From Desulfobacterales bacterium (GTDB lineage: Bacteria > Desulfobacterota > UBA8473): a stretch of 64,000 nt of DNA. A program made the position numbers and the translations under genes. Under the pieces are notes generated by a model. The model saw nothing but the letters and a program-made list of their open reading frames with translations. It searched no databases and was not told where the DNA came from. Where the stretch lies: the NCBI GenBank assembly GCA_016209225.1, contig JACQWO010000092.1, forward strand, positions 24,511 through 88,510, in the 5' to 3' direction. Below are positions 4,783 to 37,908 of this stretch, piece by piece; positions within the stretch are counted from its first letter, which is position 1, and the number at the start of each line of letters is the position of its first letter.

Positions 4783-4918
4783 GTAACTATTCAGGTAGGC
4801 ACAAAGGCACAGAGCACCAAAGGCACAAATTTTTCTAGCCTATTAGCCTATAGGCTACAGGCTATTAGCCTGTTCTTTGTGCCTATGTGCCTTTGCCACT
4901 TTGTGCCTGAGTAGTTAC
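4783..4918. repeat. MITE-like hairpin element with GTAACTAYTCAGG...CCTGAGTAGTTAC terminal inverted repeats (copy 1)
   Basis: Internal arms are built of AGGCACAAA units. A near-identical copy lies at 27773-27895. The same termini recur at 37727-37908 around a different interior. Confidence 0.6.
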
Positions 4919-5025
4919 TTTTATACAAACAAACAGAAATAAAATCAATGCAATTTGCCCAGAATTATCTATAGAGTTTTATAATAGGCTTATCTTCATT
5001 TCAGTGTGCTATATTAACAAGTTAA

Positions 5026-5063
5026 GTGACTAAAGTGAGCTAAAGTTTAAAGTGCCTAAAGTT
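5026..5063. repeat. Short tandem CTAAAGT-unit repeat
   Basis: gtgaCTAAAGTgagCTAAAGTttAAAGTgcCTAAAGTt; the same units form the hairpin at 10413-10455. Confidence 0.4.
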
Positions 5064-5184
5064 ATTTAAAAAGGAAATTCCTATACTATTAAATTAAGGT
5101 GGCTAAGCTAAGGTATCATCGTCAGGGGTGAGGCTGCGGTAGTATGAATAACGGTCGAGGAAGGTCAGATCATAGCCCTTCAGA

Positions 5185-5643
5185 CTATTTTGCCGGCATA
5201 CGCACAGTCAAAACAGGACATGCAGCCCTCCTTACGACCCTCTGTGCCACACTTCCAAAAAGCACACGCCCTAGGCCTGTACGTCCGTGGGTGCCCATAA
5301 TAATAAGATCGATTTCTTTTTCATTAGCTGTTTGTATGATTTCCGAAAACGGTATCCCTTTGGCTATGATAGGGTAGTACTCCTTAAGCATGGCAGCCAT
5401 GGATTTGCATATATCCTCAAGCTGTCCCCTGACCCTTTTTTCTATTTCTTCAAAAATCTTTACCAGAGTTTCGCCGGCCAAAAAGGGTTCTATATATGTC
5501 CAATGCTGGAAACTCTCTTCCACCACATGGATGATATACAACGGGGCCGAAAACTTCTCTGCCATTAATATAGCATAGGGAAAAGCAAAATCGGCAGTCT
5601 CAGAAAAATCGTGGCAAAACAAGATACGCTTTATTTCTACCAT
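5185..5643 (-). CDS. Universal stress protein (UspA family)
   Basis: 152 aa; ILFCHDFSE...LIIMGTHGRTGLGRVLFGSVAQRVVRRAACPVL matches the UspA ATP-binding motif. Confidence 0.85.
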   Translation of the reverse strand: MVEIKRILFCHDFSETADFAFPYAILMAEKFSAPLYIIHVVEESFQHWTYIEPFLAGETLVKIFEEIEKRVRGQLEDICKSMAAMLKEYYPIIAKGIPFSEIIQTANEKEIDLIIMGTHGRTGLGRVLFGSVAQRVVRRAACPVLTVRMPAK

Positions 5644-5735
5644 AGCACCCTCCTTGATTCGGTCAAGGCATTGTCAAAATTTTGGCATCACCTTGATTGA
5701 TAGATTTCAATAGGTTCTCCCCATAACGTGTTCCC

Positions 5736-7028
5736 TTACGTCCAATTAGCCACTCCATGGGGATGAACATAATCAACAACCTTCTGCATCCTGAGGGGCT
5801 TTCTCTTTGGAAACGAGAGTTTCGTACCTCTGGCGATAACTACCACCCCTCCGTCACTCACAAAAAAGCGCTTCCTATCATCTTCCAGGTCATAGCCTAT
5901 TTCTGTCCCCTGAGGCACCTTTACTCCTTTGTCTATGATGGCCCTCCTGATCTTAGAATATCTGCCAACCTCAACACCTTCCATCAGGACGGATTCCCTG
6001 ATATCAGCGTAGCTGTTAACACGAACCAGTGGAGAGAGAACAGAGTTCTGCACCCTTCCACCACTGATTATACACCCCCCCGAAACTATAGAATCCAGGC
6101 AGGCACCCATCCTTCCCCCAGGATACTCCTGGGCAAAGACGGTCTTGGCAGGAGGATACTGGCCCTGATATGTACGTAGGGGCCAGTCAGTGTCATAAAG
6201 ATTGAACTTAGGGTCAGGCGCCACCAGTTCCATATTAGCATCAAAGTAGGCATCAATGGTGCCCACATCCCTCCAGTATTTGGAGTCTTTTTTATTCTCG
6301 TCCCTGAAGTTATAGGCAAAGACCCTGGCCCGGTGGATCATCGCAGGGATGATGTCTTTGCCGAAATCGTGGTGACTCTTCTCACAGGCATCCTCCTCAA
6401 GGGATTCCCTTAAAATATCATTGTTGAATATATACACACCCATATTGGCAAAGAGGGGTTGCTTGCCGTGGAGTGAACCCTCGATTTTGTCGGGCTTCTC
6501 CTCAAAACCGATTACCCTGCCTTCATCATTAACCTTCATGATGCCAAACCGAGAACTCACCTGTTGATCCACCTCTATGGTGGCTACAGTAGCATCAGCA
6601 CCCTTTTCTTTATGAAAGGCAAGCATCCTGGAATAGTCCATCTTATAAATATGGTCAGCAGAGAGGATTAGAAAATATCCGGGGTTTACCGTGTCGGCAA
6701 AGTATAGGTTTTGGTATATGCTATCGGCTGTTCCCTTGTACCAATCTCCGTTAATCCGCATCTGGGGAGGAATTGGGAATATATATTCGTCAAGTTCTGA
6801 ATCGAAGATACTCCAGCCCAACCTGAGATGCTGTTCCAGAGACAATGACTTGTATTGGGTGAGTACCGCAATCTTACGCACACCGGAATTGATGCAGTTG
6901 CTCAAGGTGAAGTCTACCAGGCGATATATGCCTCCAAAGGGCACTGCCGGTTTGGCCCTATCACGCGTTAATGGATAGAGCCGCTCACCCATCCCCCCTG
7001 CCATAATCATGGCCAAAACATCCCTCAT
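5736..7028 (-). CDS. glgC: Glucose-1-phosphate adenylyltransferase
   Basis: 430 aa; AMIMAGGMGERLYPLTRDRAKPAVPFGG N-terminus and left-handed beta-helix C-terminal region. Confidence 0.9.
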   Translation of the reverse strand: MRDVLAMIMAGGMGERLYPLTRDRAKPAVPFGGIYRLVDFTLSNCINSGVRKIAVLTQYKSLSLEQHLRLGWSIFDSELDEYIFPIPPQMRINGDWYKGTADSIYQNLYFADTVNPGYFLILSADHIYKMDYSRMLAFHKEKGADATVATIEVDQQVSSRFGIMKVNDEGRVIGFEEKPDKIEGSLHGKQPLFANMGVYIFNNDILRESLEEDACEKSHHDFGKDIIPAMIHRARVFAYNFRDENKKDSKYWRDVGTIDAYFDANMELVAPDPKFNLYDTDWPLRTYQGQYPPAKTVFAQEYPGGRMGACLDSIVSGGCIISGGRVQNSVLSPLVRVNSYADIRESVLMEGVEVGRYSKIRRAIIDKGVKVPQGTEIGYDLEDDRKRFFVSDGGVVVIARGTKLSFPKRKPLRMQKVVDYVHPHGVANWT

Positions 7029-7078
7029 GGCTAAAACCCCCTCCTTGTATTTCTCCCTTGTGTAAACTTCGTTTTCCT

Positions 7079-7402
7079 TTAAGTCCTTAAATGTTGGACA
7101 TCAGCCTCTATATCGGCTATTAGGTCTAACCCCAACATAGTGGCCAAATCCATGCATTCTTTTCTTAACCCCTTTACTCTTGAGGTAATGCTTTTGGTGA
7201 ACAGGTATCTCATGACAATAACCATCATGGCCATTGCCGGAGTATCCATCGTACCCACCTTTTCGAAGTGAAATTCAGCGATTTTTATCCTGGGGTGAAT
7301 CCCTTCCATGATACTCTCTTTAATAGGGAGGATATTGTTTCGGTTAAGGTCTCCAGATAGGTCTATCTGTGCAACCGTATTGTCTTCGGTTATACGCAGC
7401 AT
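7079..7402 (-). CDS. STAS domain protein (anti-sigma factor antagonist-like)
   Basis: 107 aa; its size and the IDLSGDL...ILPIKE pattern fit SpoIIAA-like STAS proteins. Confidence 0.5.
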   Translation of the reverse strand: MLRITEDNTVAQIDLSGDLNRNNILPIKESIMEGIHPRIKIAEFHFEKVGTMDTPAMAMMVIVMRYLFTKSITSRVKGLRKECMDLATMLGLDLIADIEADVQHLRT

Positions 7403-7426
7403 CTATTCTCCATCCTCGCTAAAAAA

Positions 7427-7639
7427 TCATTTCAGGACAGCTTTTCCATTATTGTTTATGGAAAGACACTCACTTTTCCATAAACACAAGTTCTCATAGC
7501 AGTCGTGCACTCTGCCTGTGGCGTAGCAGTCGATGTTATTTTCTGCTCGTTGAATTGCCCGGATCGTATCTGCCTTTGTCATTCCGGCTGTCTTTACACC
7601 CAGATCCTTAGCCATTCTTCTAACCTCGTTAAAGTTCAT
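7427..7639 (-). CDS. Small hypothetical protein with Rho_N/SAP-like N-terminal helix-hairpin and Cys-rich C-terminus
   Basis: 70 aa; MNFNEVRRMAKDLGVKTAGMTKADTIRAIQ resembles the Rho N-terminal domain; followed by CYATGRVHDCYENLC. Confidence 0.4.
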   Translation of the reverse strand: MNFNEVRRMAKDLGVKTAGMTKADTIRAIQRAENNIDCYATGRVHDCYENLCLWKSECLSINNNGKAVLK

Positions 7640-7686
7640 TTTGTCCCTCCTAAATATGAAATTTTAGACTTGGTTTCATCCTTTCA

Positions 7687-8028
7687 TCAAAAAGGTTGTC
7701 CCTTTAAAACCATATAGGCATATTCAGGCACATTCACCATTCCCAGATTTTTGAAGTTGCCTTCCTGCCCCGATGAAATCCCAAGTATCCTTATTGATTG
7801 AACCGTTTTTTTTAACTCCCGTACAACACTCGAAAGCAAAAAGGTGCCGAAGGTTGTATATTGGTCGATTTCTTTAAGGTCGATGGTCAGATGCTGACAG
7901 TGGGGAGGAAGGGAGTCGTTCAGGAAAGAATAGATATCGTAAACCGTTTTGTGACTGAGCTCTCCCTGAATCTGAATATAAGACTCTTTGCCTGAGTGTT
8001 TGAACAAAAAATTGACAGGGTTGTCCAT
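7687..8028 (-). CDS. STAS domain protein (second paralog)
   Basis: 113 aa; weak STAS-like pattern, adjacent to the other STAS gene. Confidence 0.45.
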   Translation of the reverse strand: MDNPVNFLFKHSGKESYIQIQGELSHKTVYDIYSFLNDSLPPHCQHLTIDLKEIDQYTTFGTFLLSSVVRELKKTVQSIRILGISSGQEGNFKNLGMVNVPEYAYMVLKGQPF

Positions 8029-8047
8029 CAGTTACCCATTTCTCACG

Positions 8048-8100
8048 AGAGCTTTGAAGAAGTCCCCTGAGAGCGAATTCATAAATTTTCAAAGCTCTCA
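8048..8100. repeat. 53-bp miniature deletion derivative of the GAGAGCTTTGAA-TIR MITE
   Basis: gagagctttgaagaagtcccctgagagcgaattcataaattttcaaagctctc is the two ends of the 199-bp element fused. Confidence 0.55.
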
Positions 8101-8145
8101 GGTTAAACAAAACTCCACAGGTAATTAAGAGTATACGCAATTTTC

Positions 8146-8162
8146 ATTCCAACTTTAAAAAG
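8146..8162 (-). promoter_or_regulatory. Candidate sigma-54 promoter (-24 TGG / -12 TTGC) about 120 nt upstream of the STAS gene
   Basis: Minus strand reads tTGGaatgaaaaTTGCg with correct GG-N10-GC spacing. Prediction only. Confidence 0.3.
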
Positions 8163-8273
8163 CCTGGATACGATACCTGAAGAAACCTACAACTAATCTT
8201 ATTGTCTCCTTCGGGGAATGGGAGAAAAACCCTCGCCTTCAGGCGAAGACTTCAGTTCGATCTTTTGCGCCGC

Positions 8274-8380
8274 AAGGGTTCGAGGGTTCGAGGATTCCAG
8301 GATTCAAGAGTGATGAAGAAAAGATTCTCCCTTGACCCCTTGACCCCTTGAACCCTCAAGCTATCGGCTTTAGCCGATAG
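8274..8380. repeat. REP-like imperfect palindrome plus perfect hairpin ctatcggctttagccgatag
   Basis: gggttcgagggttcgaggattccaggattcaag ... cccttgaccccttgaccccttgaaccctcaag. Related to the element at 1959-2033. Confidence 0.4.
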
Positions 8381-8580
8381 GAGTTGACTTCAGATCAGCC
8401 GTTTACTCTTCGATTATGGGGTATTTACCATAATTGCGGTGCGGTGAGTTTGGCTATCTATCCGTAATTTTTGGAGTTTATTGAAAAGAAAGGACTGCCC
8501 CATAAACCAGAAGAGTTATGGGTAAATCCCCATAAATAGATTGGGTAGGGCGGACATTTTTAAAGGTTTAAGGGGGGGAT

Positions 8581-8970
8581 TTAGAGGAATTCTTTCCTGT
8601 CAAGGCCATACTTGGTCAACTTCTCATAAAAGGTCTTATAATTCAATCCTGACTGCCTGGCTGCCTGGGTGATATTCCCCCTGTTTTTGGAGAGCACTGC
8701 CTTCAGGTATGCACTTTCCCATGCATGAATAAGCCCTTCTTTCATTTCTCTGAAGGGCATGCCGGTATCGAGGGGCAAAGGCAGGTTGGTTTGTCTGGAG
8801 AAGGGGCTTGCCTCGGATATGCGCGAAAAATCAAACCTTTGGATTGTCGGCCCCTTTTCTGTCACTACAGATTTTTCTATGACATTTTCCAGTTCCCTTA
8901 TATTTCCTGGCCAGTGGTACTGGAATAGTGAATTTAATGCCTCAGGGGAAAGATTTATTTCAGAATTTTT
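8581..8970 (-). pseudogene. 3' remnant of a sigma-54-dependent transcriptional activator (NtrC family): C-terminal end of the AAA+ domain plus Fis-type HTH only
   Basis: The open frame starts right after the lpdA stop with no start codon: LSPEALNSLFQYHWPGNIRELENVIEKSVV ... GNITQAARQSGLNYKTFYEKLTKYGL. The receiver domain and most of the AAA+ domain are absent. Confidence 0.75.
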
Positions 8971-8991
8971 TCAGAATTCCCCAAAATCATC

Positions 8992-10401
8992 TTAAAATAC
9001 ATGGATCGCCTTTCCATATACACTATGGGCGGCTTCCATCACGCTCTCAAACAGGGTAGGGTGGGCATGGATAGTGGCGCTCAACTCTTTTGCCGTTACA
9101 CCTAATTTAATGGTCAAAGCAATCTCATGGATCAGTTCCGTTGCAAGGGGCCCGATGATCTGACCACCCACAATCTTTTCTGTCCCCTTTTCCACCACCA
9201 ACTGGACTGACCCAACAGCCTGCCCCATGGCCATGGCTTTACCGGATGCCGAAAAGGGAAACCACCCTGTTTTAACCTCTACTCCGGATGCCCGTGCCCC
9301 ATCTGCTGTCAGACCGACACTGGCTATCTCAGGAGAGGTATAAACGCAACTGGGGATAACAGAATAATCAATTTTAGAGTCTATACCCAGGGCATTCTCA
9401 ACCGCTGCAATACCCTCAGCAGATGCCACATGAGCGAGTAGTATACCCCCGGTAACATCCCCAACGGCATAGATACCCTTGATATTTGTCTCCATCCTGT
9501 CATCCACCAATATATTCCCTCTCTCATCTGACTTAACCCCAAGCTGCGCCAACCCAATGCCTTTAGAGCTGGGGGTTCTTCCGATGGCTATAAGGAGTTT
9601 CTCCCCTGCAATCTCATCACCGTTGTCCAAAAGACAGGTAATACCCTCGTCACTGTAAGAGAGCACGTCTCTAACTTTGGTCTTTACAAGGATCTTAATT
9701 CCCCTTTTTCTCAGAATCTGTGTCATCTGCCTCGAAATCCTCTTATCCTCTCTGGGCAGAATCTGATCCATCATCTCAATCAGGGTAACCTTTACACCTA
9801 AGGCATTGAAGAAACAGGCAAATTCCAATCCAATTGCCCCTCCTCCGATAATGAGTACAGTCTCGGGTAATCTGTCCAGTCTGAGTGCCTGTCTACTCGT
9901 TAAAACCGCGGGTTGCTCAGGATTTACAAAGGGCAGAATGAGTGTTTTAGAGCCGGTTGCTATTACTACCTTTGTGGCTTCTATATCTTCAGCCCCGGAG
10001 GGGGATTCCACTCTGATCCTTGTTGGGGAGATTAAGGTTGCAGTACCCTTGATAAACCCAATACCCCTTTTCTTGAATATCCCGTGTATACCATTGCCCA
10101 GACCTTCTACAACCCGACCCTTTCGTTCCATAATCTTTCCGAGATCGGCTCGAACCTCGCCAACATAAATCCCAAAGTCTTCTGCTTCTTTTATAGAGGT
10201 AAAGAGTTCAGCGGATGCGAGAATGGCCTTGGTAGGGATACAGCCATGGTTGAGACAGGTACCTCCGATGGCATCCTTTTCTATAACAGTAACTTCGGCA
10301 CCTAACTGCGAAGCCCTAATGGCTCCTACATAACCACCAGGACCGGAACCGATTATAACGATCTTTTCTTTGCTCAAAAACTCCACCTCCCTCCTATACA
10401 C
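8992..10401 (-). CDS. lpdA: Dihydrolipoyl dehydrogenase
   Basis: 469 aa; GSGPGGYVGAIRASQLG FAD motif, GGTCLNHGCIPTK redox-active disulfide, C-terminal HAHPTLxE dimerisation motif. Confidence 0.9.
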   Translation of the reverse strand: MYRREVEFLSKEKIVIIGSGPGGYVGAIRASQLGAEVTVIEKDAIGGTCLNHGCIPTKAILASAELFTSIKEAEDFGIYVGEVRADLGKIMERKGRVVEGLGNGIHGIFKKRGIGFIKGTATLISPTRIRVESPSGAEDIEATKVVIATGSKTLILPFVNPEQPAVLTSRQALRLDRLPETVLIIGGGAIGLEFACFFNALGVKVTLIEMMDQILPREDKRISRQMTQILRKRGIKILVKTKVRDVLSYSDEGITCLLDNGDEIAGEKLLIAIGRTPSSKGIGLAQLGVKSDERGNILVDDRMETNIKGIYAVGDVTGGILLAHVASAEGIAAVENALGIDSKIDYSVIPSCVYTSPEIASVGLTADGARASGVEVKTGWFPFSASGKAMAMGQAVGSVQLVVEKGTEKIVGGQIIGPLATELIHEIALTIKLGVTAKELSATIHAHPTLFESVMEAAHSVYGKAIHVF

Positions 10402-10412
10402 TTGATTCTTAT

Positions 10413-10455
10413 AAGTGAGCTAAAGTGACTAAAGTTCCATAACTTTAGCTCACTT
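10413..10455. repeat. Perfect 13-14 bp inverted repeat hairpin built from CTAAAGT units in a divergent promoter region
   Basis: aagtgagctaaagt...aactttagctcactt. Confidence 0.45.
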
Positions 10456-10597
10456 CAGGCACTTTTTAATTTCATAACAAATCATATACCTTGTGTCAAG
10501 ATATGGTTTTTCCCTTGACGATTTACTCTGTTAATAGTAGTTTATTCGGAAAGGTGGAATATTGATAGACCGTAAACCCTAAAGACGGACATCTCTT

Positions 10598-11356: not shown

Positions 11357-11374
11357 TTCGAGACCTTTGCATAA

Positions 11375-11573
11375 CCTACCGAGAGCTTTGAAGAAGTATC
11401 CCTGAGAGCGAATTGCATAGATTTTTTGGGAAACCCATCTTAGCAAGCGAAATGTAGAAAATTCACATGTTTGAGCCCGAAGGGTGAGTTTGTGAATTTT
11501 CAATGGAGCGAGCTTAGATGGGTCAAAAAATTCATGCTGAAGCGAAAAGGGGTAATTTTTCAAAGCTCTCAAT
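11375..11573 (-). mobile_element. 199-bp MITE-like element with 12-bp terminal inverted repeats GAGAGCTTTGAA (copy 1, reverse orientation)
   Basis: About 90% identical to copies at 16546-16745 and 31013-31211. The 76-aa track ORF inside it is spurious. Confidence 0.7.
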
Positions 11574-11591
11574 TCAAGGAAGGAGACAAAG

Positions 11592-16345: not shown

Positions 16346-16545
16346 AATCAACCTATAGACAAACTAACACCTTTCAACCTATCAGTAAAGTATTTTTTAC
16401 TCTGCCCTTTCAGCTATCCAGCCCTTGAATTTTCAGCGGTTACGTCTTATATTAGATATATTATTGATTGCGTACCTAACTTTCAAAAGAGAGAAAATTC
16501 CATAAATGTTATTGACAACATCCTGCTATTTAAATTATCTATATA

Positions 16546-16745
16546 TAGAGAGCTTTGAAAAATTACCCCTTTTCGCTTCAGCATACATTTTTTGACCCAT
16601 CTAAGCTCGCTTCATTGAAAATTCACAAACTCACCCTTCGGGCTCAAGCATGTGAATTTTCTACATTACGCTCGCTAAGTTGGGTTCCCCAAAAAATCTA
16701 TGAATTCGCTCTCAGAGGTACTTCTTCAAAGCTCTCGGTAGGTTA
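16546..16745 (+). mobile_element. 199-bp GAGAGCTTTGAA-TIR MITE-like element, copy 2
   Basis: Lies directly upstream of the polyferredoxin-hdrA operon. The track ORF 16555-16836 is spurious. Confidence 0.7.
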
Positions 16746-16810
16746 TGATAAAGGTCTCAGAGAGTGCTGGTTTTTTCCCTGTTTAATAGAGCATTACTCC
16801 TGGAGATATT

Positions 16811-17656: not shown

Positions 17657-17661
17657 GAATT

Positions 17662-17720
17662 CAGTAGTCAGTAGTCAGAATGGAAATAATTTTCTGCTGG
17701 ATTCTGACTCCTGACTACTG
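17662..17720. repeat. 20-bp-stem inverted repeat built of AGTCAGT units between the polyferredoxin and hdrA genes
   Basis: cagtagtcagtagtcagaat...attctgactcctgactactg. Confidence 0.5.
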
Positions 17721-17737
17721 ACTTAATAGGTGATTCT

Positions 17738-22916: not shown

Positions 22917-24671
22917 ATGGCAAGTACGGTCGAAAAACTTCTTAGAGATAATGGATACTATTTATCTGACGGTCACTATAAGCTAGTTAGTGGGCGACAT
23001 TCGAATGCATATGTTCAGGCAAGAATATCTCTTATGGATCCAAAAATAAATAGTGAATTTCGCACTATATCTACAGAGTTAATTCGTGACCAGAATGTCT
23101 CTGCAGTAGCAGGATTTACAGTAGGAGGCCTACTACTCGCTGATGAAATCGCAAAATATACAAAACTTCCATTGGTAGTCGGGTATAAACCAATGAACGA
23201 TGTAGAATGGCTTGGTGCAGAAAACATTCGAGTTAATTCCAAAGTTCTTTTAGTTGATGATGTTTTAACAACGGCTTCACAGATAAGAACTGCTATACGT
23301 AGTCTTGAAGATATTAGTAATATCAGTGAACTCTTAATATTAGTCGCCGTTGACCGAAGCAATGGAGACTTGAAGATTAAATTTAGGGATGATGAAGTTA
23401 GGATATTGGACTGTATCAAAATTCCTTTATCATCATTTAATCCGAGTGAATGTCCTTCATGCTTTGCTGGGATACCTACAACTGACTTATCTAATCCTGA
23501 AAAAGACGTTGTATCTGTCGTTCTCACGCAACCTCGAGACAAATCTGACTTTATTTTAAAAGGTTATGAAAAAGTATATAAAATGCAACGAGACCAAAAG
23601 TCATTAGATGAAATGAAGGCGTGGAAATTATGGATGCCTGTACTTTTAGCAGGATTACCTATGGCAAGAGCAAAAGAAGATAGTAGTTTGATAAAGTTTG
23701 TAAGCTATTTAACGACTATAGCAGGAGAGCATAATATCAAACCGAGAGTACTCAGTGAGATAATAGGTCAGCTAATAAGGTTATCGTCAATACGAGTTGA
23801 ATCTAGGGCCATTGGCTGTTCTATGATTGTTGGCAATATAGATGAAATCGGTAATATCCTTGAATCAAGGGCGAGAGTTAGAATGCCAATAAATATAAAC
23901 CATGAAAAGCTAACAGAGCTTGTACCACACTTCGATGCACTGTTAGAAACAAATTATGCTATCGTGTTAAGCAATGATGGAAAAGCAATAGACTTCCGAA
24001 GACTCAATTTTAGTAGATCAAGACGCTATATAGAAGGCATAGAGTTAGTACGTTTTGTTACTGCAAATTCTCGGTCCATCGGTTTTGTTCTCAGGCGAGG
24101 AAGGAGTGCTATTGCTGTATATAATAATGGACGACTTGAGGCTATTGGTGAATTATCTGAAAGAAGTGGGCTTTGGGAATTTTCTAGGCCAATGGATAGG
24201 ATAGAAGAAATTCAATCAATATTAAAAAGAAATGTTCAAGAGTTACTTTTAACTTTGGTAGAAGCGTCAAGAGAACTAGTTGCTAGAGGGCATGGTGCAC
24301 TATTTGTGGTTGGTAACGTAGACTCTTTAAACCATACAGTGCCCAAAATTGAAATTGAACCTCAGAATATTAAAGACATGACAATAGAAGATTTAGTTGA
24401 ATTAGCAAAACTTGACGGTGCAGTATTGATAACTGAAGACGGCAGATTACTTCAAGCCACTGTCATATTGAAGAATCGAGATGAAGGGACCTTTGCAGGT
24501 CAACAAGCTGGTACTACGCATGGTGGCAGTCGGAAAGAAACGGCAATAAGAACAAGCATAGAATGCCCAAATTGCGCGGTGATTAATATTTCTCAAAATG
24601 GTGCTATTGAAATATATGTTCACGGAGAGTCATGGCCAATTTCTGAATCATTTTCAGGATTGTCACGATGA
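22917..24671 (+). CDS. Phosphoribosyltransferase-domain protein fused to two degenerate diadenylate-cyclase (DAC/DisA_N)-like domains; putative retron/defence effector
   Basis: 584 aa; PRTase PRPP loop NSKVLLVDDVLTTASQI. The C-terminus ELVARGHGALFVVGN...LDGAVLITEDGRLLQATVIL...GTTHGGSRKETAIRTSIECPNCAVINISQNGAIEIYVHGE aligns with CdaA but lacks RHR. An earlier degenerate copy is present. Candidate -35/-10 at 22857-22884 and a strong RBS. Confidence 0.7.
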   Translation: MASTVEKLLRDNGYYLSDGHYKLVSGRHSNAYVQARISLMDPKINSEFRTISTELIRDQNVSAVAGFTVGGLLLADEIAKYTKLPLVVGYKPMNDVEWLGAENIRVNSKVLLVDDVLTTASQIRTAIRSLEDISNISELLILVAVDRSNGDLKIKFRDDEVRILDCIKIPLSSFNPSECPSCFAGIPTTDLSNPEKDVVSVVLTQPRDKSDFILKGYEKVYKMQRDQKSLDEMKAWKLWMPVLLAGLPMARAKEDSSLIKFVSYLTTIAGEHNIKPRVLSEIIGQLIRLSSIRVESRAIGCSMIVGNIDEIGNILESRARVRMPININHEKLTELVPHFDALLETNYAIVLSNDGKAIDFRRLNFSRSRRYIEGIELVRFVTANSRSIGFVLRRGRSAIAVYNNGRLEAIGELSERSGLWEFSRPMDRIEEIQSILKRNVQELLLTLVEASRELVARGHGALFVVGNVDSLNHTVPKIEIEPQNIKDMTIEDLVELAKLDGAVLITEDGRLLQATVILKNRDEGTFAGQQAGTTHGGSRKETAIRTSIECPNCAVINISQNGAIEIYVHGESWPISESFSGLSR

Positions 24672-24691
24672 TAAAAACCCTAACCCATAAG

Positions 24692-24762
24692 GTTTGATCT
24701 GACCGGGCGACGTGAATAGAGTATAAAAAGCTGAGCTTTCGCTCCCGGTCAGAATCAAACCA
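24692..24762 (+). ncRNA. Long hairpin (17-bp stem GGTTTGATCTGACCGGG / CCCGGTCAGAATCAAACC, 36-nt loop) in the 269-bp gap upstream of the NDT-like and RT genes; second msd-like candidate
   Basis: Imperfect only by one bulged A. It is followed by a 10-bp inverted repeat ATGCGTAACC / GGTTACGCAT at 24789-24798 / 24868-24877, and has no T-run after it. Confidence 0.3.
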
Positions 24763-24940
24763 TTGTTCAACAACAGCATGCACATGAATGCGTAACCGCA
24801 AGGTGCTTTTTGGCTTTTGATTATTTTACTTTTGCAAAGCATCTTTGAGCATGTTTACAAGATACAGGTTACGCATCAGTGATGCTCGCGTTAGACATAT
24901 AAATAATTAAAGATCATGGCTGGTGTAACATCAAGAAATT

Positions 24941-25507
24941 ATGAGTGATATCAAAGAATCAATAACAAGATTTGGCAATGATTTAGAGGATATTTTCTCA
25001 GAACGTAGAGCTGTTGTTTTTCTCTGCGGCCCGTCTTCCAAAGACCTAGATCATCCTGGTGCACAATTACGCGTCGACCTTGAGGAAGCATTAAAGCAAG
25101 AAGGCTTCGAGGTGATTCTAGGAGAGGATGATGGGCTTGAAAGCCTCAGGCATAAATATAGTAACTATGCACATGAAAATGAATTGATGTTTATTCAAAA
25201 ACACTGCAATGCAGTGATCCTTATCGCTTCTAGTGTTGGTGCCTACTGTGAATTGGGTTTATTTTCTTACAAAAAAGTTCATGACTTAGAAAGCATGACG
25301 GATTTTATTTTAATAATTAGCAATGAATATGAAAATGTACAATCTTTTTTAATCGAGGGACCAGCTGCTGCTATCGATGATTTTGGGAAAGTTTTTTACG
25401 GAGACTTATCTAATTTTGATTATAGCAATATTATTAAAAGGTTGAGGCGGAGGCGCTCTGTTTATTTTACAAGTCACAAAGGTCGTCCACCTTCATTTAA
25501 TGAATAA
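24941..25507 (+). CDS. Nucleoside 2-deoxyribosyltransferase-like (NDT-like) protein, the effector class of type II retrons
   Basis: 188 aa; AVVFLCGP (compare IYLAGP) and AVILIASSVGAYCELGLF (compare DSGTAFELGYA); 2-nt gap to the RT gene. Confidence 0.65.
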   Translation: MSDIKESITRFGNDLEDIFSERRAVVFLCGPSSKDLDHPGAQLRVDLEEALKQEGFEVILGEDDGLESLRHKYSNYAHENELMFIQKHCNAVILIASSVGAYCELGLFSYKKVHDLESMTDFILIISNEYENVQSFLIEGPAAAIDDFGKVFYGDLSNFDYSNIIKRLRRRRSVYFTSHKGRPPSFNE

Positions 25508-25509
25508 CG

Positions 25510-26991
25510 ATGCGAGTAACATTAAACGAAAATATACTACTCTGGGCGGCAGCAGTTTTACAACCAGCTTCTGCGGCTGATGTTAGAAGTTTTATTGCAT
25601 CAATTTATCCAGAAATTTCACTACTCCCCAATATTGGAGAAATCGAAAATATTTTTTCAACTTGGCGAGAAGAAGGGTATTTACAGAGAGTTCATGGTAA
25701 ATCAAGATTGTATTCAGCAACTTACAAAACAAATTTAAAGCTATCAGTAAAGCTAAGACGAAGCAGGGACAAGTCCCGTCTTTTCTTGCTTAAATCTACA
25801 AGAGCTGCTAATGTGAATGTATCGGGGGTACGAGAACAGGATTCGGTTGGCGATTCGCCATCCACGGAAGGTAGCATAATTTTACAAGAGGGTGCGTGGC
25901 CAATAAAACCGGCCGCTGCTCCTCGGGTTCCTCGGACCACCGGCCGATTTTATTGGCCACGGATCTCAAAGCAACTAAGTATTGAAGTTGGCCCTAGTTT
26001 TTCGTCCCCCGATACATTTTTTAACTATTATTCATTCCCTTCTATCAAAACCATTCATGAGGCTAGTCATAAGCCTGCTTCAGAAAAAGATCTAAGTATA
26101 ACAGATATCTCTTTAGCCATTGGAATAAGTCCGCGGCTCATTACATCCTTTATTCATGCCCCTGAAAACCATTATAGGCAATTTAAAATTGGTAAACGAG
26201 GTGGTGGAGAGCGTGTTATAAATTCGCCTAGAACATTTTTAAAGGTGGTTCAATACTGGATATTAGATTATCTGCTTCATTCTTTGCCTTGTCATCCGAA
26301 CTGTCATTCCTACCAAAAAGGAAAGTCTATTTTGTCTAATTCTCTTCCTCATGTTGGGCAAAAATATTTAGCAAACATTGATATTTCTAATTATTTCCCA
26401 TCAATTAATGAAAAAATGGTTTTCTCTCTTTTAAGAGACAATAATTTTGGAGAACAGTTATCAAAAGCCGTCGCCCGTATTGTCACACTTGAGAATGGTT
26501 TGCCCCAGGGCGCACCAACTAGCCCAATTATTTCCAATGCGTTTCTATGTAATTTTGATGAAATTATGACTCAGCGAGCTTTGTCTTTTAATCTTGTATA
26601 TACAAGATATGCAGATGACATGACTATAAGCGGGGAAAATAAAGAGAATATAATTAGTTTGATAAAAAATTTGTCTGCTAATCTCAAGGATATGGGCCTC
26701 TCCATTAATGAGAAAAAAACAAGGATCGCGAGTCAAGGAGGACAGCAAAAAGTGACAGGCATAGTTGTAAACGAAGTTTCGCAACCACCTCGTACTTATA
26801 GAAGGAACATTAGATCAATGTTTCACCATGCAGAGAGAAACCCAGAATTATTTGCAGACAATATTAAAGTTCTGAAAGGATATATAAGTTATTTGCAAAG
26901 TTTTCCGAATATGCAAGGGAAAAAAGAAATATTCAGATATAAAAATGTTTGTAAAACAATTGAAAAGAATTTTGTCCAACAATCGCATTAG
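25510..26991 (+). CDS. Retron-type reverse transcriptase with an N-terminal extension of about 190 aa
   Basis: 493 aa; FKIGKRGGGERVINSP, LPQGAPTSP, YTRYADDMTISG (YADD), and the retron-specific QKVTGIVVN (VTG). Confidence 0.85.
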   Translation: MRVTLNENILLWAAAVLQPASAADVRSFIASIYPEISLLPNIGEIENIFSTWREEGYLQRVHGKSRLYSATYKTNLKLSVKLRRSRDKSRLFLLKSTRAANVNVSGVREQDSVGDSPSTEGSIILQEGAWPIKPAAAPRVPRTTGRFYWPRISKQLSIEVGPSFSSPDTFFNYYSFPSIKTIHEASHKPASEKDLSITDISLAIGISPRLITSFIHAPENHYRQFKIGKRGGGERVINSPRTFLKVVQYWILDYLLHSLPCHPNCHSYQKGKSILSNSLPHVGQKYLANIDISNYFPSINEKMVFSLLRDNNFGEQLSKAVARIVTLENGLPQGAPTSPIISNAFLCNFDEIMTQRALSFNLVYTRYADDMTISGENKENIISLIKNLSANLKDMGLSINEKKTRIASQGGQQKVTGIVVNEVSQPPRTYRRNIRSMFHHAERNPELFADNIKVLKGYISYLQSFPNMQGKKEIFRYKNVCKTIEKNFVQQSH

Positions 26992-27036
26992 CTCATATAA
27001 ATAAGCATAAGCAATTATTGAAAGGAGGAATATATT

Positions 27037-27240
27037 ATGGATAAGGCTCTTTTAGAAAAAGCATTAGAAATGTCACCGAATGAAAGGGTAGTACTTGCTG
27101 AGTTAATCCTAGCTAGCATCGATCATGAAGAAGATGAAATTCGCGAATTATGGCTTTCTGAAATAAAAGACCGTATAAAAGCAGTCAATGAAGGTAAAGC
27201 AAAATTATTAGATTTTGAAAGGCTATACAATGAAAGTTAG
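27037..27240 (+). CDS. Putative addiction-module antitoxin component (orphan, no toxin gene adjacent)
   Basis: 67 aa; MSPNERVVLAELILASID...LSEIKDRI fits the small alpha-helical antitoxin family usually paired with RelE/ParE-like toxins. Confidence 0.55.
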   Translation: MDKALLEKALEMSPNERVVLAELILASIDHEEDEIRELWLSEIKDRIKAVNEGKAKLLDFERLYNES

Positions 27241-27308: not shown

Positions 27309-27770
27309 ATGGCAAAGCTATCCATGTACCAACTGTACCATTATCTCCCGAAAACCGATTGTGAGAAGTGCGGCTTTTCATGTATGGGATTCGCTAATCG
27401 CCTTATTTCCAGAGATGTTAGACCGGAGGATTGCCCTTTTCTATTGGAACCGGAGTACTCAGAGTCCCTGACTGAACTGAACAGGCTTCTGGGCCCTGAG
27501 GTTGAGAAAGAGATCACAGGGCTTATAATAGACCAGGAAAAGTGCAATGGATGCGGTATATGTGTTACTGTATGTGAGGTAAATATGGAAAAGAGTCAAG
27601 AGGTAGGAGCGGGGAGAGGTCCTGGCTTTTCAGATGAGGTTGTGTTACGAATAGATAATGGGAAGATTAAGCTGGTTGACCCCCAATCTTGCAGACGGGC
27701 AAACCCCTCTTCCCATATCTGCAGGGCATGTGCGGAACTATGCCCCACAAAAGCTATTAGCCTTGTGTGA
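27309..27770 (+). CDS. Small Fe-S protein: N-terminal CFeSP/CdhE-like 4Fe-4S motif plus ferredoxin-like cluster motifs
   Basis: 153 aa; LPKTDCEKCGFSCMGFANRL...CPF resembles the corrinoid Fe-S protein large-subunit N-terminus; then CNGCGICVTVC and CRACAELCP. Confidence 0.6.
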   Translation: MAKLSMYQLYHYLPKTDCEKCGFSCMGFANRLISRDVRPEDCPFLLEPEYSESLTELNRLLGPEVEKEITGLIIDQEKCNGCGICVTVCEVNMEKSQEVGAGRGPGFSDEVVLRIDNGKIKLVDPQSCRRANPSSHICRACAELCPTKAISLV

Positions 27771-27772
27771 TT

Positions 27773-27895
27773 GTAACTATTCAGGTAGGCACAAAGGCAC
27801 AGAGCACCAAAGGCACAAAGTTAAGAAAAAACAACGAAACGACCCTGCTCTGCTTTGTGCCTATGTGCCTTTGCCACTTTGTGCCTGAGTAGTAC
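27773..27895. repeat. GTAACTAYTCAGG-TIR MITE-like hairpin element, copy 2, inserted between the Fe-S gene stop and fwdB
   Basis: Near-identical arms to 4783-4918; right end cctgagtag-tac has a 1-nt deletion. Confidence 0.6.
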
Positions 27896-29202: not shown

Positions 29203-29212
29203 AGGAATTCCC

Positions 29213-30613: not shown

Positions 30614-31012
30614 GCATTCAAATTCAAAGTCTTTTTCCAAACCCTGTCAACTGGATTCTATGAACTGTTACGATTTTTCTTGAAATTTATTTGTATATAG
30701 AGTAAAAGTATACAATAGTGTGCTCATCCTCATACTCTAATTGAACCCGAGATTACCTATACTGTACCCAATATCTATAATCTTGCCATGAGAGTGACCT
30801 AGTAATAGTTTTAGGTTCAGATTCACTATTGTATCCCAATTAGGATGCCGAAGATTCCAGATACCTTCCGCAATTTCTATTCTTACATGAGCACGGCAAG
30901 AGAGTAGAACGATCAAAACCACTTTATAACTTCAATAAAGTAGAATTCCCGAGATATTTTTAATTATTCGACGCTTGAGACTAAAGTTTGTCTACTTTAC
31001 TTCTTAACAAAA

Positions 31013-31211
31013 TTGAGAGCTTTGAAAAAGTACCCCTTTTCGCTTCAGCATACATTTTTTGACCCATCTAAGCTCGCTTCATTGAAAATTCACAAACTCA
31101 CCCTTCGGGCTCAAATATGTGAATTTTCTACATTCCGCTCTCTAAGAAGGGTTCCCCAAAAAATCTATACAATTCGCTCTCAGGGAGCTTCTTCAAAGCT
31201 CTCGGTAGGTT
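31013..31211 (+). mobile_element. 199-bp GAGAGCTTTGAA-TIR MITE-like element, copy 3, about 130 bp upstream of cdhA
   Basis: The track ORF 31013-31276 is spurious. Confidence 0.7.
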
Positions 31212-31339
31212 GTGCAAATATCTCAAAAGGGGGTGAATGGAACCGGGAAACTCACAATTTAGTACAGGGTGGATAAAGATTGGCGCTTAGATTTAATATT
31301 TTTATGTTGGCAAATATTTTTAAATAGGAGGGAGAAGAT

Positions 31340-33847: not shown

Positions 33848-33873
33848 ACCTTGATGGAAGAAAGGAGACAGAT

Positions 33874-34341
33874 ATGACTGCAACGCCAGTTGATATAGCA
33901 AAGTGCTTAAAGGAAGACAAGAATATACTGTTATTAACGGGGGCACTGTGTGATACCCTTGAGATCGGAGGGAAAAGGCTTGTAGAGTATGCAGGGGAGA
34001 TAGCAGAGTTGGCTGGCATTCCTGTAGCTGCCACCGGCAATACTATTGCCAGCCTGGTAAAAAGGAATATCAAAACCAAGAAGATGTTTGCAGGTGACGT
34101 GATTAACTACATGCGTGTTGAGAAGTGGGAGGATCCTATAGCCCCGGAGAGGCCAGAAACACTGGTATTCATCGGCTACTATCCCCAGTTCTTGAACATG
34201 ATGCTTACCAGCTTAGGAGATAATAAAACGGTGAGTCTGGATAACGTGGCCATTGGGGAGGCGACCATTTCTCTTCCAGACCTGAACCTGGATGACTGGG
34301 CTAAGTTTCTGGATAACGTAATAGGTGAATTGAAGAAATAG
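33874..34341 (+). CDS. cdhB: CODH/ACDS epsilon subunit (CdhB)
   Basis: 155 aa, immediately downstream of cdhA; its size and position fit CdhB. Confidence 0.7.
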   Translation: MTATPVDIAKCLKEDKNILLLTGALCDTLEIGGKRLVEYAGEIAELAGIPVAATGNTIASLVKRNIKTKKMFAGDVINYMRVEKWEDPIAPERPETLVFIGYYPQFLNMMLTSLGDNKTVSLDNVAIGEATISLPDLNLDDWAKFLDNVIGELKK

Positions 34342-34381
34342 CAGATTGCTTTTTCTGTTCGGAATTTCAAACCACTAACTA

Positions 34382-34436
34382 AATAGGGGCAGAAGAGTGG
34401 GGATATATTCCCCCTTTCTGCCCCTATTGTTTTTCA
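34382..34436. terminator. Bidirectional Rho-independent terminator between the convergent cdhB and cusA genes
   Basis: 13-bp stem aataggggcagaa/ttctgcccctatt followed by GTTTTTC. Confidence 0.5.
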
Positions 34437-34534
34437 TTATACCAAAGGAGTTACTTAATTGCCGAGCATGTACAATGGTTCTTAGGATTATAGCGGATTA
34501 TAGGGACCGGATTATTGAGCTAGTACAGCAGCCC

Positions 34535-37500
34535 TCATTCTTTTTTGAGCTCTCTCCCTTTCCATAGCATATAAATGGCCGGATATATCGCCAGTTCAAG
34601 AATAGTGGATGTAATTACCCCGCCTACCATGGGAGCGGCGATCCGTTTCATTACATCCGCTCCTGTGCCGTGGCTGAACATGATGGGAATAAGACCTGCT
34701 AAGATAACGCTTACGGTCATAATCTTAGGACGTATCCTCTTGACTGCGCCGTACATTACAGATTCCCTGAGATCAGCCTGACTTCGCAACCTGCCTTCCT
34801 GACGCCATTTCTCATGGGCGATGTCAAGATAGAGGAGCATTACGACCCCGGTTTCCGCGTCTAAACCCGCCAGGGCGATGATCCCCACCCATACGGCAAT
34901 GCTCATATTATAATTGAGGAGATATAGCAGCCAGAATGAGCCGACAAGCGAAAAGGGCACGGCTAAAAGAACGATCACTGTTTTAGTTATGCTCTTTGTG
35001 TTGAAAAAGATAAGCACAAAGATAATGAGCGCGGTAAGCGGGACAACCATCTTTAATCTGTCATGCGTTTTTACCAGATACTCGTACTCCCCGCTCCATT
35101 CCAGACGGTATCCTGAAGGTATATTTACGGAGGCGACCCGTTTCTTCGCGTCATCCACGTAACCGCCCACATCCCTGCCGGAAAAATCCAGATAGACGTA
35201 TAACGACAGCAGCCCGGCTTCACTCTTTATACCCGTTGGCCCTTTAATGATCCTGATATCTGCTAACTGTCCAATCGGAACCTGAACAAGGGAAGGGGAG
35301 CCGGCAGAAGTGTCCCCCATGCCGCCACCGGCGGATTGTCCACCCATCCTCACAGGCACCAGTACCCGCTTCAGTTTCTCCACATCATTCCGCAATTCCC
35401 GCGCATACCTCACATTGACTGGATAACGCTCTCGTCCCTCAACGGTGATAGTCAGGTTCATCCCTCCCACCGCCGCCTGAATAACTTCCTGAACGTCATC
35501 GACGCTCAATCCGTAGCGGGCGATTTCTTCACGTTTGATATTGAAATCCATGAAGTATCCCGTAGTCAGCCGTTCCGCATAGGCGCTTCTGGTGCCGGGG
35601 ACATCCTTCACCACATTTTCTATCTCCTTGCCTATTCTCTCCAATTCATCAATGCGGGGGCCCAGGACCTTGATACCCACAGGCGTCCTGATGCCCGTAG
35701 AGAGCATGTCGGTCCGCGCCTTGATAGGCATGGTAAAGGAATTGGCCACCCCCGGTATGGTCAGGACGTCATTCATCTCGCTTTTCAGGGCTTCTACGGT
35801 CATGCCCTTGCGCCACTCGGATTCCGGTTTCAGATTGATGACCGTCTCAAACATCTCCAGCGGCGCCGGATCGGTGGCCGTCTCTGCCCGGCCGCTCTTG
35901 CCGAATACCTGAGCCACTTCAGGGATCTTCATTAATATCCTGTCCATCATCTTGAGCAGACGGGAAACCTCGGTGATGGAAGCGGCGGGTACGGTAACGG
36001 GCATATAAAAGAGCGTGCCTTCATAGAGGGGCGGCATGAATTCCGACCCTAACTTCATAAAGGGATAGGCCGTCAGTGCCATGACGATCACGGCAAGAAA
36101 AATTACGGTTTTACGGAAGCGCAGGGAAAAATGAGCCACGGGTTCGTAAAGCTTGCGGAGTATGATGCTGATGGGGTTTTTATCCTCATGCTTGATATTG
36201 CCTTTGATAAAGATTGTCATCAGCACCGGGGTCAATGTAACGGCGAGAAAGGAGGAAAATAGCATAGCAAAGGTTTTTGTATAGGCAAGGGGTTTGAAAA
36301 GCCTTCCGGCCTGGGCCTGGAGGGTGAAAACGGGCAGGAAACCCACACTGATAACGAGAAGAGCAAAGAAAAGCGACGGCCCCACCTCCTTGGCGGCCTC
36401 GATGATAACATCTGTGCGGTTTCCTGGTCGGCCCTTTTCTTCCCACTCCTCAAGCTTTTTGTGGGCGTTTTCCACCATGATGATTGAGGCGTCCACCATG
36501 GCGCCGATAGCGATGGCAATCCCGCTCAGACTGATGATATTTGACGTGACACCTAAATAATACATGCATATAAAGGAAATGATAATGGCAATGGGCAGCG
36601 TGAGAATGACCACTAAAGCGCTGGGCAGATGAAACAAAAATACGATGCAGACGACGCTTACGGCAATCGCCAGCTTGATGATCTCTTCCTTGAGGGTATC
36701 AATGGAACGCCGAATCAGGTCGGAGCGGTCATAGGTGGTGACGATCTCCACGCCCTTAGGGAGACTGGGCGCGATATTTGTTTTTATCTTTTCTTTGACC
36801 CTGTCGATCACGTCGAGGACGTTTTCTCCAAATCTGACAACGACAATCCCTGCCGCCACTTCACCTTTGCCGTCTAAATCCGCCAATCCCCTTCGTATCT
36901 CCGGGCCAATCCTCACGGTGGCTACATCTTTCAACAGGACGGGTGTGCCAAGTCCGTTGCCGCCCACGGAAATATTTTCCAAATCTTTCAAACCTTTTAT
37001 ATAGCCGCGCCCTCGTATCATGTATTCAATGCCGGAAAACTCCAGCACCCGTCCTTCCACGTCGCGGTTACTCTTCCTTACCGCCTCCATCACGGACATG
37101 AGAGGTATATTGAAGGCTAAAAGCCTGTTGGGATCGATAGTTATCTGATATTGCTTGACAAATCCCCCCAGGCTGGCCACCTGGGAAACGCCCGGCACGC
37201 TTTCGAGAGCCAGCTTAATGTTGTAGTCCTGGAGGCTGCGGAGCTCTGCCAGATTGTGCTTGCCCGTCTTGTCTACAACGGCATAGGAAAAGCCCCAACC
37301 GACGCTCGTAGCATCCGGGCCGAGTACGGGATTGACATCCGAGGGAATTTTGGACTTCACGGCCTGAAGATATTCCAGCACCCGGCTTCTCGCCCAATAG
37401 ATATCCGTGCCTTCATCGAAAATCACATAGATAAAGGAACTTCCCAAGAAAGAAAATCCCCGGACAAACTGAACCTTCGGCGCCGCAAGCAATGTGGACG

Positions 37501-37708
37501 ATATGGGATAGGTTATCTGGTCTTCCACCAAATCGGGGCTTCTGCCCGCCCATTCCGTATAGATGATTACCTGAGTATCGCTTAGATCGGGAATTGCATC
37601 AAGGGGGGTTTTCTTCAATGCCCAGTATCCCCAGATGGCAAGGAAGGCAACTAAGAGAAAGATGATGAATTTATTGCGTGCACTGTAATCAATGATTTTA
37701 GCGATCAT
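34535..37708 (-). CDS. cusA: CusA/CzcA-family heavy-metal efflux RND permease
   Basis: Start set at Met46 (MIAKIIDYSARNKF) of the 1102-aa track ORF, because the upstream extension reads through a MITE-like element. Transmembrane and periplasmic-domain architecture fits. Confidence 0.9.
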   Translation of the reverse strand: MIAKIIDYSARNKFIIFLLVAFLAIWGYWALKKTPLDAIPDLSDTQVIIYTEWAGRSPDLVEDQITYPISSTLLAAPKVQFVRGFSFLGSSFIYVIFDEGTDIYWARSRVLEYLQAVKSKIPSDVNPVLGPDATSVGWGFSYAVVDKTGKHNLAELRSLQDYNIKLALESVPGVSQVASLGGFVKQYQITIDPNRLLAFNIPLMSVMEAVRKSNRDVEGRVLEFSGIEYMIRGRGYIKGLKDLENISVGGNGLGTPVLLKDVATVRIGPEIRRGLADLDGKGEVAAGIVVVRFGENVLDVIDRVKEKIKTNIAPSLPKGVEIVTTYDRSDLIRRSIDTLKEEIIKLAIAVSVVCIVFLFHLPSALVVILTLPIAIIISFICMYYLGVTSNIISLSGIAIAIGAMVDASIIMVENAHKKLEEWEEKGRPGNRTDVIIEAAKEVGPSLFFALLVISVGFLPVFTLQAQAGRLFKPLAYTKTFAMLFSSFLAVTLTPVLMTIFIKGNIKHEDKNPISIILRKLYEPVAHFSLRFRKTVIFLAVIVMALTAYPFMKLGSEFMPPLYEGTLFYMPVTVPAASITEVSRLLKMMDRILMKIPEVAQVFGKSGRAETATDPAPLEMFETVINLKPESEWRKGMTVEALKSEMNDVLTIPGVANSFTMPIKARTDMLSTGIRTPVGIKVLGPRIDELERIGKEIENVVKDVPGTRSAYAERLTTGYFMDFNIKREEIARYGLSVDDVQEVIQAAVGGMNLTITVEGRERYPVNVRYARELRNDVEKLKRVLVPVRMGGQSAGGGMGDTSAGSPSLVQVPIGQLADIRIIKGPTGIKSEAGLLSLYVYLDFSGRDVGGYVDDAKKRVASVNIPSGYRLEWSGEYEYLVKTHDRLKMVVPLTALIIFVLIFFNTKSITKTVIVLLAVPFSLVGSFWLLYLLNYNMSIAVWVGIIALAGLDAETGVVMLLYLDIAHEKWRQEGRLRSQADLRESVMYGAVKRIRPKIMTVSVILAGLIPIMFSHGTGADVMKRIAAPMVGGVITSTILELAIYPAIYMLWKGRELKKE

Positions 37709-37726
37709 TATTATCCTTATGCAGTT

Positions 37727-37908
37727 GTGACTACTCACGTAGTCAGGCTGAAGCTGTTTAGACTGAAGGCTGAAGGAATCCGAAAAGCACGATTGAAGCG
37801 CTTTGGTGGAGAGAGAGGATTCACACACCAAACACGACTTCAAAATGAGCCGTATTCCCGTTTCGACTAACAGCCTTCAGCCTACAGCCTAAACACCTGA
37901 GTAGTTAC
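37727..37908. repeat. MITE-like hairpin element with GTGACTACTCACG...CCTGAGTAGTTAC termini and a GGCTGAAG-unit interior (variant of the 4783/27773 family)
   Basis: It shares the 13-nt termini but has a different interior. It lies in the cusA leader. Confidence 0.5.

Follow-up and report, generated by a model that had tools for sequence, protein, structure and literature searches.

What are the three short hairpin repeats that lie between genes in a 64,000-nucleotide stretch of a Desulfobacterales genome, and how did they come to be there? The stretch (GenBank assembly GCA_016209225.1, contig JACQWO010000092.1, positions 24,511 to 88,510), which as a whole is called the window here, had been read in a first-pass annotation as holding three copies of an element with shared inverted termini. 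That annotation proposed that they were either non-autonomous elements that one transposase recognises by their shared ends and mobilises, or RNA structures resembling repetitive extragenic palindromic (REP) sequences and bacterial interspersed mosaic elements (BIMEs). [quoted passage not shown] All three were located at the positions first given for them.

4783-4918 (136 nt), unstranded: W1, probable MITE copy of the GGCACAAA-unit subfamily; left end GTAACTATTCAGG (4783-4795), right end CCTGAGTAGTTAC (4906-4918)
4775-4782, unstranded: left copy of the W1 target-site duplication, CTTTATAC, a 7/8 match to the right flank
4919-4926, unstranded: right copy of the W1 target-site duplication, TTTTATAC; the 8-bp length is family-wide
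27773-27895 (123 nt), unstranded: W2, probable MITE copy of the W1 subfamily; left end GTAACTATTCAGG, right end CCTGAGTAGTAC
37727-37908 (182 nt), unstranded: W3, probable MITE copy of the GCTGAAG/GCTGTAG-unit subfamily; left end GTGACTACTCACG, right end CCTGAGTAGTTAC

Three elements with common inverted ends

W1 to W3 are non-coding, measure 123-182 nt and are bounded by inverted 13-nt ends of the type GTAACTAYTCAGG. The right end of W2 has a 1-nt deletion (one T is gone), and the left end of W3 is degenerate, with 2 mismatches, while its right end is perfect. At up to 2 mismatches the 13-mer occurs 5 times in the window against 1.17 expected, a count that 0 of 100 shuffles produced, and the chance expectation for the paired-end pattern is 0.00. 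As the first reading had it, W1 and W2 have near-identical arms, with 47/48 left-arm and 46/50 right-arm positions shared, and W3 combines the same termini with another interior, clustering with a different subfamily. Searches with nhmmer profiles of both subfamilies (W1/W2 and W3) detected nothing more within the window, which has 3 copies in 64 kb. No open reading frame (ORF) is contained in any of the three elements, and those that overlap them are spurious read-through only.

Relatives in other genomes

The genome-wide search with the termini that had been suggested at the outset was run as a scan of one genome per prokaryotic species with the pattern TAACTAYTCAGG-N(97-157)-CCTGARTAGTTA, and amounts to a sample and not a census. 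At least 118 loci matched, and their hosts belong to at least 16 phyla and also include an ANME-1 archaeon. Among the matches listed, the phyla represented are Pseudomonadota, Desulfobacterota, Chloroflexota, Nitrospirota, Nitrospinota, Methylomirabilota, Bacteroidota, Ignavibacteriota, Calditrichota, Bacillota, Verrucomicrobiota, Elusimicrobiota, Deferribacterota, Deinococcota, Actinomycetota and Cyanobacteriota, and genomes of Chamaesiphon (a cyanobacterium) and Polaromonas are included. Several matches come from megabase-scale contigs or from a complete chromosome (loci L019, L034, L072, L080 and L093) and one from an isolate genome (L109), so that this breadth is not a binning artefact. 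Several other genomes are multi-copy, with up to five or six loci per metagenome-assembled genome (MAG) among the matches listed. Outside the window, then, the ends show massive enrichment, and the three window loci are related to one another in the manner first described.

The flanks of these relatives carry the strongest mark of how the elements spread. Among the matches listed, a perfect 8-bp target-site duplication flanks 58 of the 116 elements with usable flanks, and a further 19 have a 7/8 duplication; in a control with randomly re-paired flanks the count was about 0.6 for each class. Target duplications are the footprints of transposition, and the elements are therefore mobile DNA and not REP-type palindromes. 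In the same set, a G immediately precedes the pattern on its left side in 112/116 elements and a C immediately follows it on its right side in 113/116, which establishes GTAAC...GTTAC as the ends.

The surroundings of the relatives revealed no recurrent partner. No transposase was found in the flanks of the listed loci (at least 118), the genes next to solo ends in the fetched loci were housekeeping genes only, and an all-versus-all BLASTP comparison of 921 ORFs from these loci, made for a recurrent neighbour, recovered generic families only (sigma-54 activators, PAS proteins, ABC ATPases and UDP-glucose dehydrogenases). BLASTN against plasmids gave no match for the copies from Polaromonas and Chamaesiphon, and a scan of 2.9 million viral contigs gave 2 matches only, suggesting that phages are not an obvious vector.

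Full-length insertion sequences with the same ends

The ends themselves point to a source of transposase. The Geobacillus plasmid pHTA426 carries a 1,635-bp annotated IS66-like element with ends GTATCTATTCAGC and GTAACTATTCAGC, of the type GTAWCTATTCAGC, an 8-bp duplication, GACGAGTT, and one 485-aa ORF with DDE_Tnp_IS66, zf-IS66 and DUF6444 domains. ISDge4 of Deinococcus geothermalis, a member of the ISBst12 group of the IS66 family, is reported to have ends GTGACTACTCAGCA and GTAACTGCTCAGCA, a direct repeat of 8 bp and one transposase of 449 aa, and its transposition has been observed (PMC12898284). We fetched 80 metagenomic loci via an alignment of environmental relatives of the pHTA426 transposase, and in 60 of these 80 transposase-encoding loci such ends form inverted pairs separated by 1.4-2.0 kb (median 1,568 bp). 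The 120 IS ends of these pairs have the consensus GTAACT[AG]CTCAG[GC], which the window ends fit; both ends are exactly GTAACTACTCAGG in L125, L127, L128 and L180, and exactly GTAACTATTCAGG in L196. This type of transposase was found by tblastn of plasmids in Bacillus, Deinococcus, Geobacillus, cyanobacteria, Streptomyces and others, and its matches among environmental proteins at E<=1e-60 number at least about 8,000. The occurrence of the same ends on ISBst12 elements indicates that it is to the ISBst12 group that the cross-phylum conservation of the 13 nt belongs.

Like the members of this group (ISBst12, ISDge4 and the pHTA426 element, classified by NCBI as 'IS66-like ISGka4 family'), the window elements have terminal inverted repeats (TIRs) of the form 5'-GTAACT[AG][CT]TCAG[GC], together with 8-bp duplications. 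They differ in being 123-182 nt long and free of ORFs, whereas the IS are about 1.5-2.0 kb and encode one DDE_Tnp_IS66 protein of about 450-500 aa, so the window elements are not IS members but only derivatives that share the ends. The full-length elements are compact, with an ORF that nearly reaches the ends, and none has the unit-repeat arms of the window elements. Similarity between MITE and IS stops after about 13-18 nt; the right end of L196 and the left end of W1, for example, share GTAACTATTCAGGTAGGC. This suggests that the MITEs are not simple internal-deletion derivatives and that the recognition ends are all they have in common with the IS. In some ISBst12-type elements of about 1.9 kb (L175:2147-4047 and L177:821-2721) the inverted repeats are longer, measuring about 45 nt (GTAACTGCTCAGGAGGCATCCTGAAGCAGGAAGCCCCCTGAGAGA) and not about 13 nt.

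Taken together, the 8-bp duplications and the ISBst12 ends support the first of the two original proposals, that of non-autonomous elements mobilised by an end-recognising transposase. Their non-autonomy agrees with a Pfam scan of 40 window ORFs, which detected no transposase domain, of the Y1-type (RAYT) or other; the multiple dispersed copies and a relative that lacks the element in the orthologous spacer, both described below, also speak for this reading. Under the mechanism that we envisage, a full-length ISBst12-type element elsewhere, in the same genome now or in the past, would supply the transposase, which would bind both GTAACTAYTCAGG ends of the short element and mobilise it in trans; insertion at staggered cuts 8 bp apart would then generate the 8-bp target-site duplication.

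Several observations weigh against this interpretation. No cognate transposase for these ends was found within the 64-kb window. W2 and W3 have no recognisable target duplication in their flanks. Perfect 8-bp duplications were seen in 9 of the 53 full-length elements with both flanks, the remainder of which lie mostly on contigs of IS length whose flanks are probably collapsed or chimeric. The exact ends of the listed genome matches were imposed by the search pattern, so that independent evidence of end conservation comes only from the protein-anchored loci, where ends were sought at up to 3 mismatches. No exact empty site was recovered, and present-day mobility in this organism is unproven.

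State of the elements in the source genome

Independent short-read assemblies of the same population break within the W2 arms (L001, L201 and L202), as expected for a multi-copy repeat. Exact-protein look-ups of the genes flanking the copies retrieved only contigs of the same population that end in repeats, with no empty site among them. A relative with 92% amino-acid identity (L206) keeps the glgC-usp-polX synteny around the W1 position and has a usp-polX spacer of 213 nt without such ends, compared with 466 nt including W1 in the window; the L206 spacer is too diverged from that of the window to define the exact empty site. With its 7/8 duplication and intact ends, W1 looks like the youngest copy, while W2 and W3, with damaged ends and no duplication, look old or recombined/rearranged and are probably immobile.

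Gene context, folding and a possible host function

Examination of the genes around W2 and W3 showed that both lie inside operons (Fe-S/fwdB and cusB/cusA). W2 had been placed exactly between an Fe-S gene's stop and fwdB, and it does start 2 nt past the stop of that gene (27309-27770; PF04060 plus Fer4) and end 20 nt short of the TTG at which fwdB begins (TIGR03129; 372 bits, with the cutoff at 328), before the fwdB ribosome-binding site. W3 lies between the stop of a cusB-like gene (37929) and the true cusA ATG (37708), and the earlier suggestion that it sits in the cusA leader and makes the cusA ORF 45 codons too long is borne out by alignment: starting from ATG 37708, which is preceded by AAGGA, the protein aligns to TIGR00914 (CusA/CzcA) from residue 1 onward and to ACR_tran from residue 6 onward. 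The mechanically called cusA ORF spans 34535-37843 and includes the following segment.

37709-37843, minus strand: spurious 45-codon N-terminal extension of the cusA ORF; the open frame enters W3, up to a TTG at 37843

A mechanical 140-aa ORF (4492-4914, plus strand) crosses W1 and is almost certainly spurious, like the cusA extension. Removal of W2 and W3 would leave intergenic spacers of about 22 and about 38 nt, with stop codons and ribosome-binding sites undamaged.

Folding, which had also been recommended as a check, showed that all three elements form hairpins well beyond shuffled controls. As DNA the hairpins of W1 to W3 are long, with z-scores of -5.2 to -7.9, and as RNA the z-scores are -6.3 to -7.0; the RNA fold of W2 reaches -49 kcal/mol (z about -6.3) and that of W3 -78 kcal/mol (z about -7.0). 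Across the whole window, Rfam covariance models at gathering score gave 0 matches and a tRNA/tmRNA scan found none. If W2 and W3 are co-transcribed with the fwd and cus operons, they would form very stable RNA hairpins that, by analogy with ERIC, BIME and RUP, could affect mRNA processing or stability.

It is conceivable, then, that elements of transposon origin are now kept at W2 and W3 for a host function, with the hairpins setting differential mRNA stability or processing between the Fe-S gene and fwdB and between cusB and cusA. Such a role would add to the MITE explanation and would not be an alternative to it. It would agree with the placement of both elements exactly between a stop codon and the next ribosome-binding site with neither damaged, with the strength of their RNA folds, and with their being the pair whose ends have decayed and which lack a duplication, hence immobile. 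Effects on mRNA are documented for MITEs such as ERIC and BIME (reviewed in PMC3049150). On the other hand, consensus scans around W2 and W3 found no promoter- or terminator-like sequence within or beside the elements, and survival between genes is equally expected from purifying selection against insertions into genes. We therefore regard a retained host function as rather unlikely.

Arms, centres and subfamilies

The interiors of the elements are not remnants of IS; hairpin arms built of 7-8-nt units define the subfamilies, and only the ends are common to all. The centres of W1 and W2 are unrelated despite the near-identical arms, and the W2 centre matches longer forms of about 180 nt in other genomes (L032 and L097), indicating that W2 is a deletion derivative. 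Clustering of the interiors among the matches listed gave many subfamilies, with 34 singletons. The subfamily of W1 and W2 is hosted, as assigned, by Desulfobacteria, Desulfonema, an unclassified deltaproteobacterium, Nitrospinae, Nitrospirae and Peptococcaceae, on short contigs for which binning error is possible; arm identity to W1 is 84-96% in most of these hosts, with lower values for the copy from Peptococcaceae and for one arm of a copy from Desulfobacteria. The W3 subfamily has hosts in Nitrospirae, Desulfobulbia and Methylomirabilis, and the GGTTCACG subfamily is common to Desulfobacterales, Thermodesulfovibrionales, Dehalococcoidia and a contig of an ANME-1 Methanophagales MAG (L061). 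The MITE on that contig (L061:7352-7515) has a perfect duplication, CTATATAA, and the contig encodes archaeal Kae1, Spt5, FtsZ and a protein of the geranylgeranyl-reductase family (the kind that saturates archaeal lipids); it is genuinely archaeal. Its arms belong to the subfamily of copies in MAGs of Desulfobacterales, the order of typical ANME partners, which hints at transfer between domains.

The arm motifs are oriented. Read inward from the terminus in 238 arms of 119 retrieved elements, AGG occurs 281 times versus 117 for CCT, and TCAGG 40 times versus 5 for CCTGA, counts that are inflated by over-representation of some subfamilies. G peaks at arm positions 20, 27-28 and 34-35, a 7-8-nt phase that continues the ...TCAGG of the end. 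Such phased motifs may derive from slippage-driven growth of the hairpin arms, or may represent extra transposase-binding sites. Ungapped scores of arm complementarity and periodicity, which are crude, were weak (median 0.475; few arms at 0.6 or above), suggesting that a whole-length hairpin with unit repeats describes some subfamilies and not the whole superfamily.

These patterns raise the tentative possibility, to which we give well below even weight, of a pan-prokaryotic and largely undescribed superfamily of ISBst12-end MITEs, whose subfamilies would be set by terminus-phased arms that the parent IS lack and would be shared between distant phyla. Arms of the W1 type, for instance, are found in genomes assigned to Desulfobacterota, Nitrospinota and Nitrospirota and, in a more diverged form, in one assigned to Bacillota, and another subfamily is common to ANME-1 archaea and Desulfobacterales.

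The window also contains hairpins without GTAAC ends, at 1958-2035, 8276-8362, 10414-10468, 5024-5047 and 17657-17727, whose arms consist of tandem 7-8-nt units (e.g., GGTTCGAG, CAGTAGT and AAGTGAGCT) and resemble the interiors of ISBst12-end MITEs from other phyla. Three short-read contigs (L203-L205) end just before the hairpin at 5024, suggesting that these hairpins are multi-copy. They are either end-deleted MITE remnants or an independent repeat class.

One reading of such hairpins is that the unit-repeat structures are the primary, self-standing repeat class of this genome, and that ISBst12-type ends later came to flank pre-existing hairpins. The endless hairpins (all of the above except that at 5024-5047), the likeness of their arms to MITE interiors of other phyla and the lack of such arms in full-length ISBst12 elements would accord with this order of events. 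Yet in distant phyla the same arm subfamilies are found on elements whose ends are intact and whose duplications are perfect, which is simpler if the arms travel with the ends and the endless hairpins are remnants that have lost them, and the arm motifs are oriented and phased to the terminus (the AGG excess given above). We judge it improbable that the hairpins came first.

Least favoured is the second of the original proposals, that the elements are REP/BIME or REPIN-like palindromes spread by a RAYT (Y1 HUH) transposase and mainly structural elements of RNA or DNA: as in REP, BIME and REPIN sequences, they are extragenic, palindromic and strongly hairpin-forming, lie within operons and have a GTAG tetranucleotide in the right end, but REP sequences are 20-40 nt long, lineage-specific and RAYT-linked and make no target duplications, whereas here 8-bp duplications are frequent in relatives, the ends equal those of DDE-type IS66/ISBst12 elements and recur in at least 16 phyla, and no Y1-type transposase appears in the Pfam matches of the 40 window ORFs scanned, all of which makes this origin extremely improbable.

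Comparison with known elements

Reading W1 to W3 as MITEs makes them a known kind of element tied to a known IS group. They have the features by which MITEs are recognised, being non-coding and shorter than about 600 bp, with TIRs, a fixed 8-bp duplication, multiple copies and ends shared with an autonomous IS. In being small and non-coding, with TIRs that match an IS and with target duplications, they resemble classical MITEs such as Correia/NEMIS, RUP, ERIC, MITEPsy1, MITEAba12 and Chunjie, which are likewise intergenic, form stable hairpins and are often co-transcribed with their neighbours (PMC3184786, PMC3189936, PMC3049150). They are unlike these in their parent family (IS66/ISBst12), in their unusually wide phyletic spread, which takes in at least 16 phyla and an ANME-1 archaeon, and in a modular build of constant ends, subfamily-specific unit-repeat arms and variable centres.

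The Nezha elements of Anabaena and Nostoc, whose partner is ISNpu3-like, are similar in size (about 130-170 bp), in sharing terminal repeats with an IS, in having direct repeats and in folding very stably, and their transfer between species has been inferred (PMC3184786). The window elements could be related to Nezha, as far as a comparison by description goes; one published Nezha copy has a 10-bp direct repeat, CATTATCTAC (PMC6042816), in place of the 8 bp found here, which argues against identity. In the open-access literature searched we found no MITE linked to IS66/ISBst12, and exact 12-mers of the ends retrieved only unrelated primer sequences.

Other repeats and loci in the window

Another family of repeats, with GAGAGCTTTGAAGAAG-type inverted ends and a length of about 190 nt, is present in full-length and short forms.

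11370-11574, 16545-16747 and 31011-31227: copies of the GAGAGCTTTGAAGAAG-end family, with mutual identity of 94-95%
8046-8099 and 42690-42722: short forms of the same family

A 47-nt solo end of this family (4729-4775) abuts the W1 target duplication, indicating that the usp-polX spacer is a repeat pile-up.

Directly upstream of the Fe-S gene and W2 is a retron-like defence locus (22917-27240). Its retron-like reverse transcriptase (25510-26991) scores 255 bits on a retron St85-family model (cutoff 235), and its gene has an internal inverted repeat (25895-25961). Ahead of it come a putative STM3845-like effector of 188 aa, which at 46 bits falls below the cutoff, and an ORF of 584 aa in which PRTase and DAC domains were recognised; a 67-aa Unstab_antitox gene comes after it. 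Elsewhere in the window, a 39-nt direct repeat (51026-51064 and 52543-52581; 85% identical) adjoins an outer-membrane efflux gene (51055-52374) and a ketoacyl-synthase gene (52573-53814).

Significance

Recognition of these elements has practical consequences for genome annotation. In the window they inflate ORF calls, adding 45 spurious codons to cusA and producing the 140-aa ORF over W1, and they break short-read assemblies and mark sites of past rearrangement; recognising them improves the annotation of Desulfobacterales and of many other MAGs. They also offer a natural minimal substrate for the poorly understood transposition of ISBst12/IS66 elements, since ends of about 13 nt suffice to define the family. 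Such ends indicate that a single IS group has probably given rise to non-autonomous elements in hosts from at least 16 phyla and in an ANME-1 archaeon. Should the tentative superfamily described above be real, it would imply frequent movement of non-autonomous DNA between phyla and between domains, and the arms would be functional, for example as accessory transposase-binding arrays or as selected RNA hairpins. If arms are indeed shared across phyla and domains, the elements would serve as tracers of DNA exchange within the consortia of anoxic sediment and groundwater, including those in which ANME archaea and sulfate reducers are partners.

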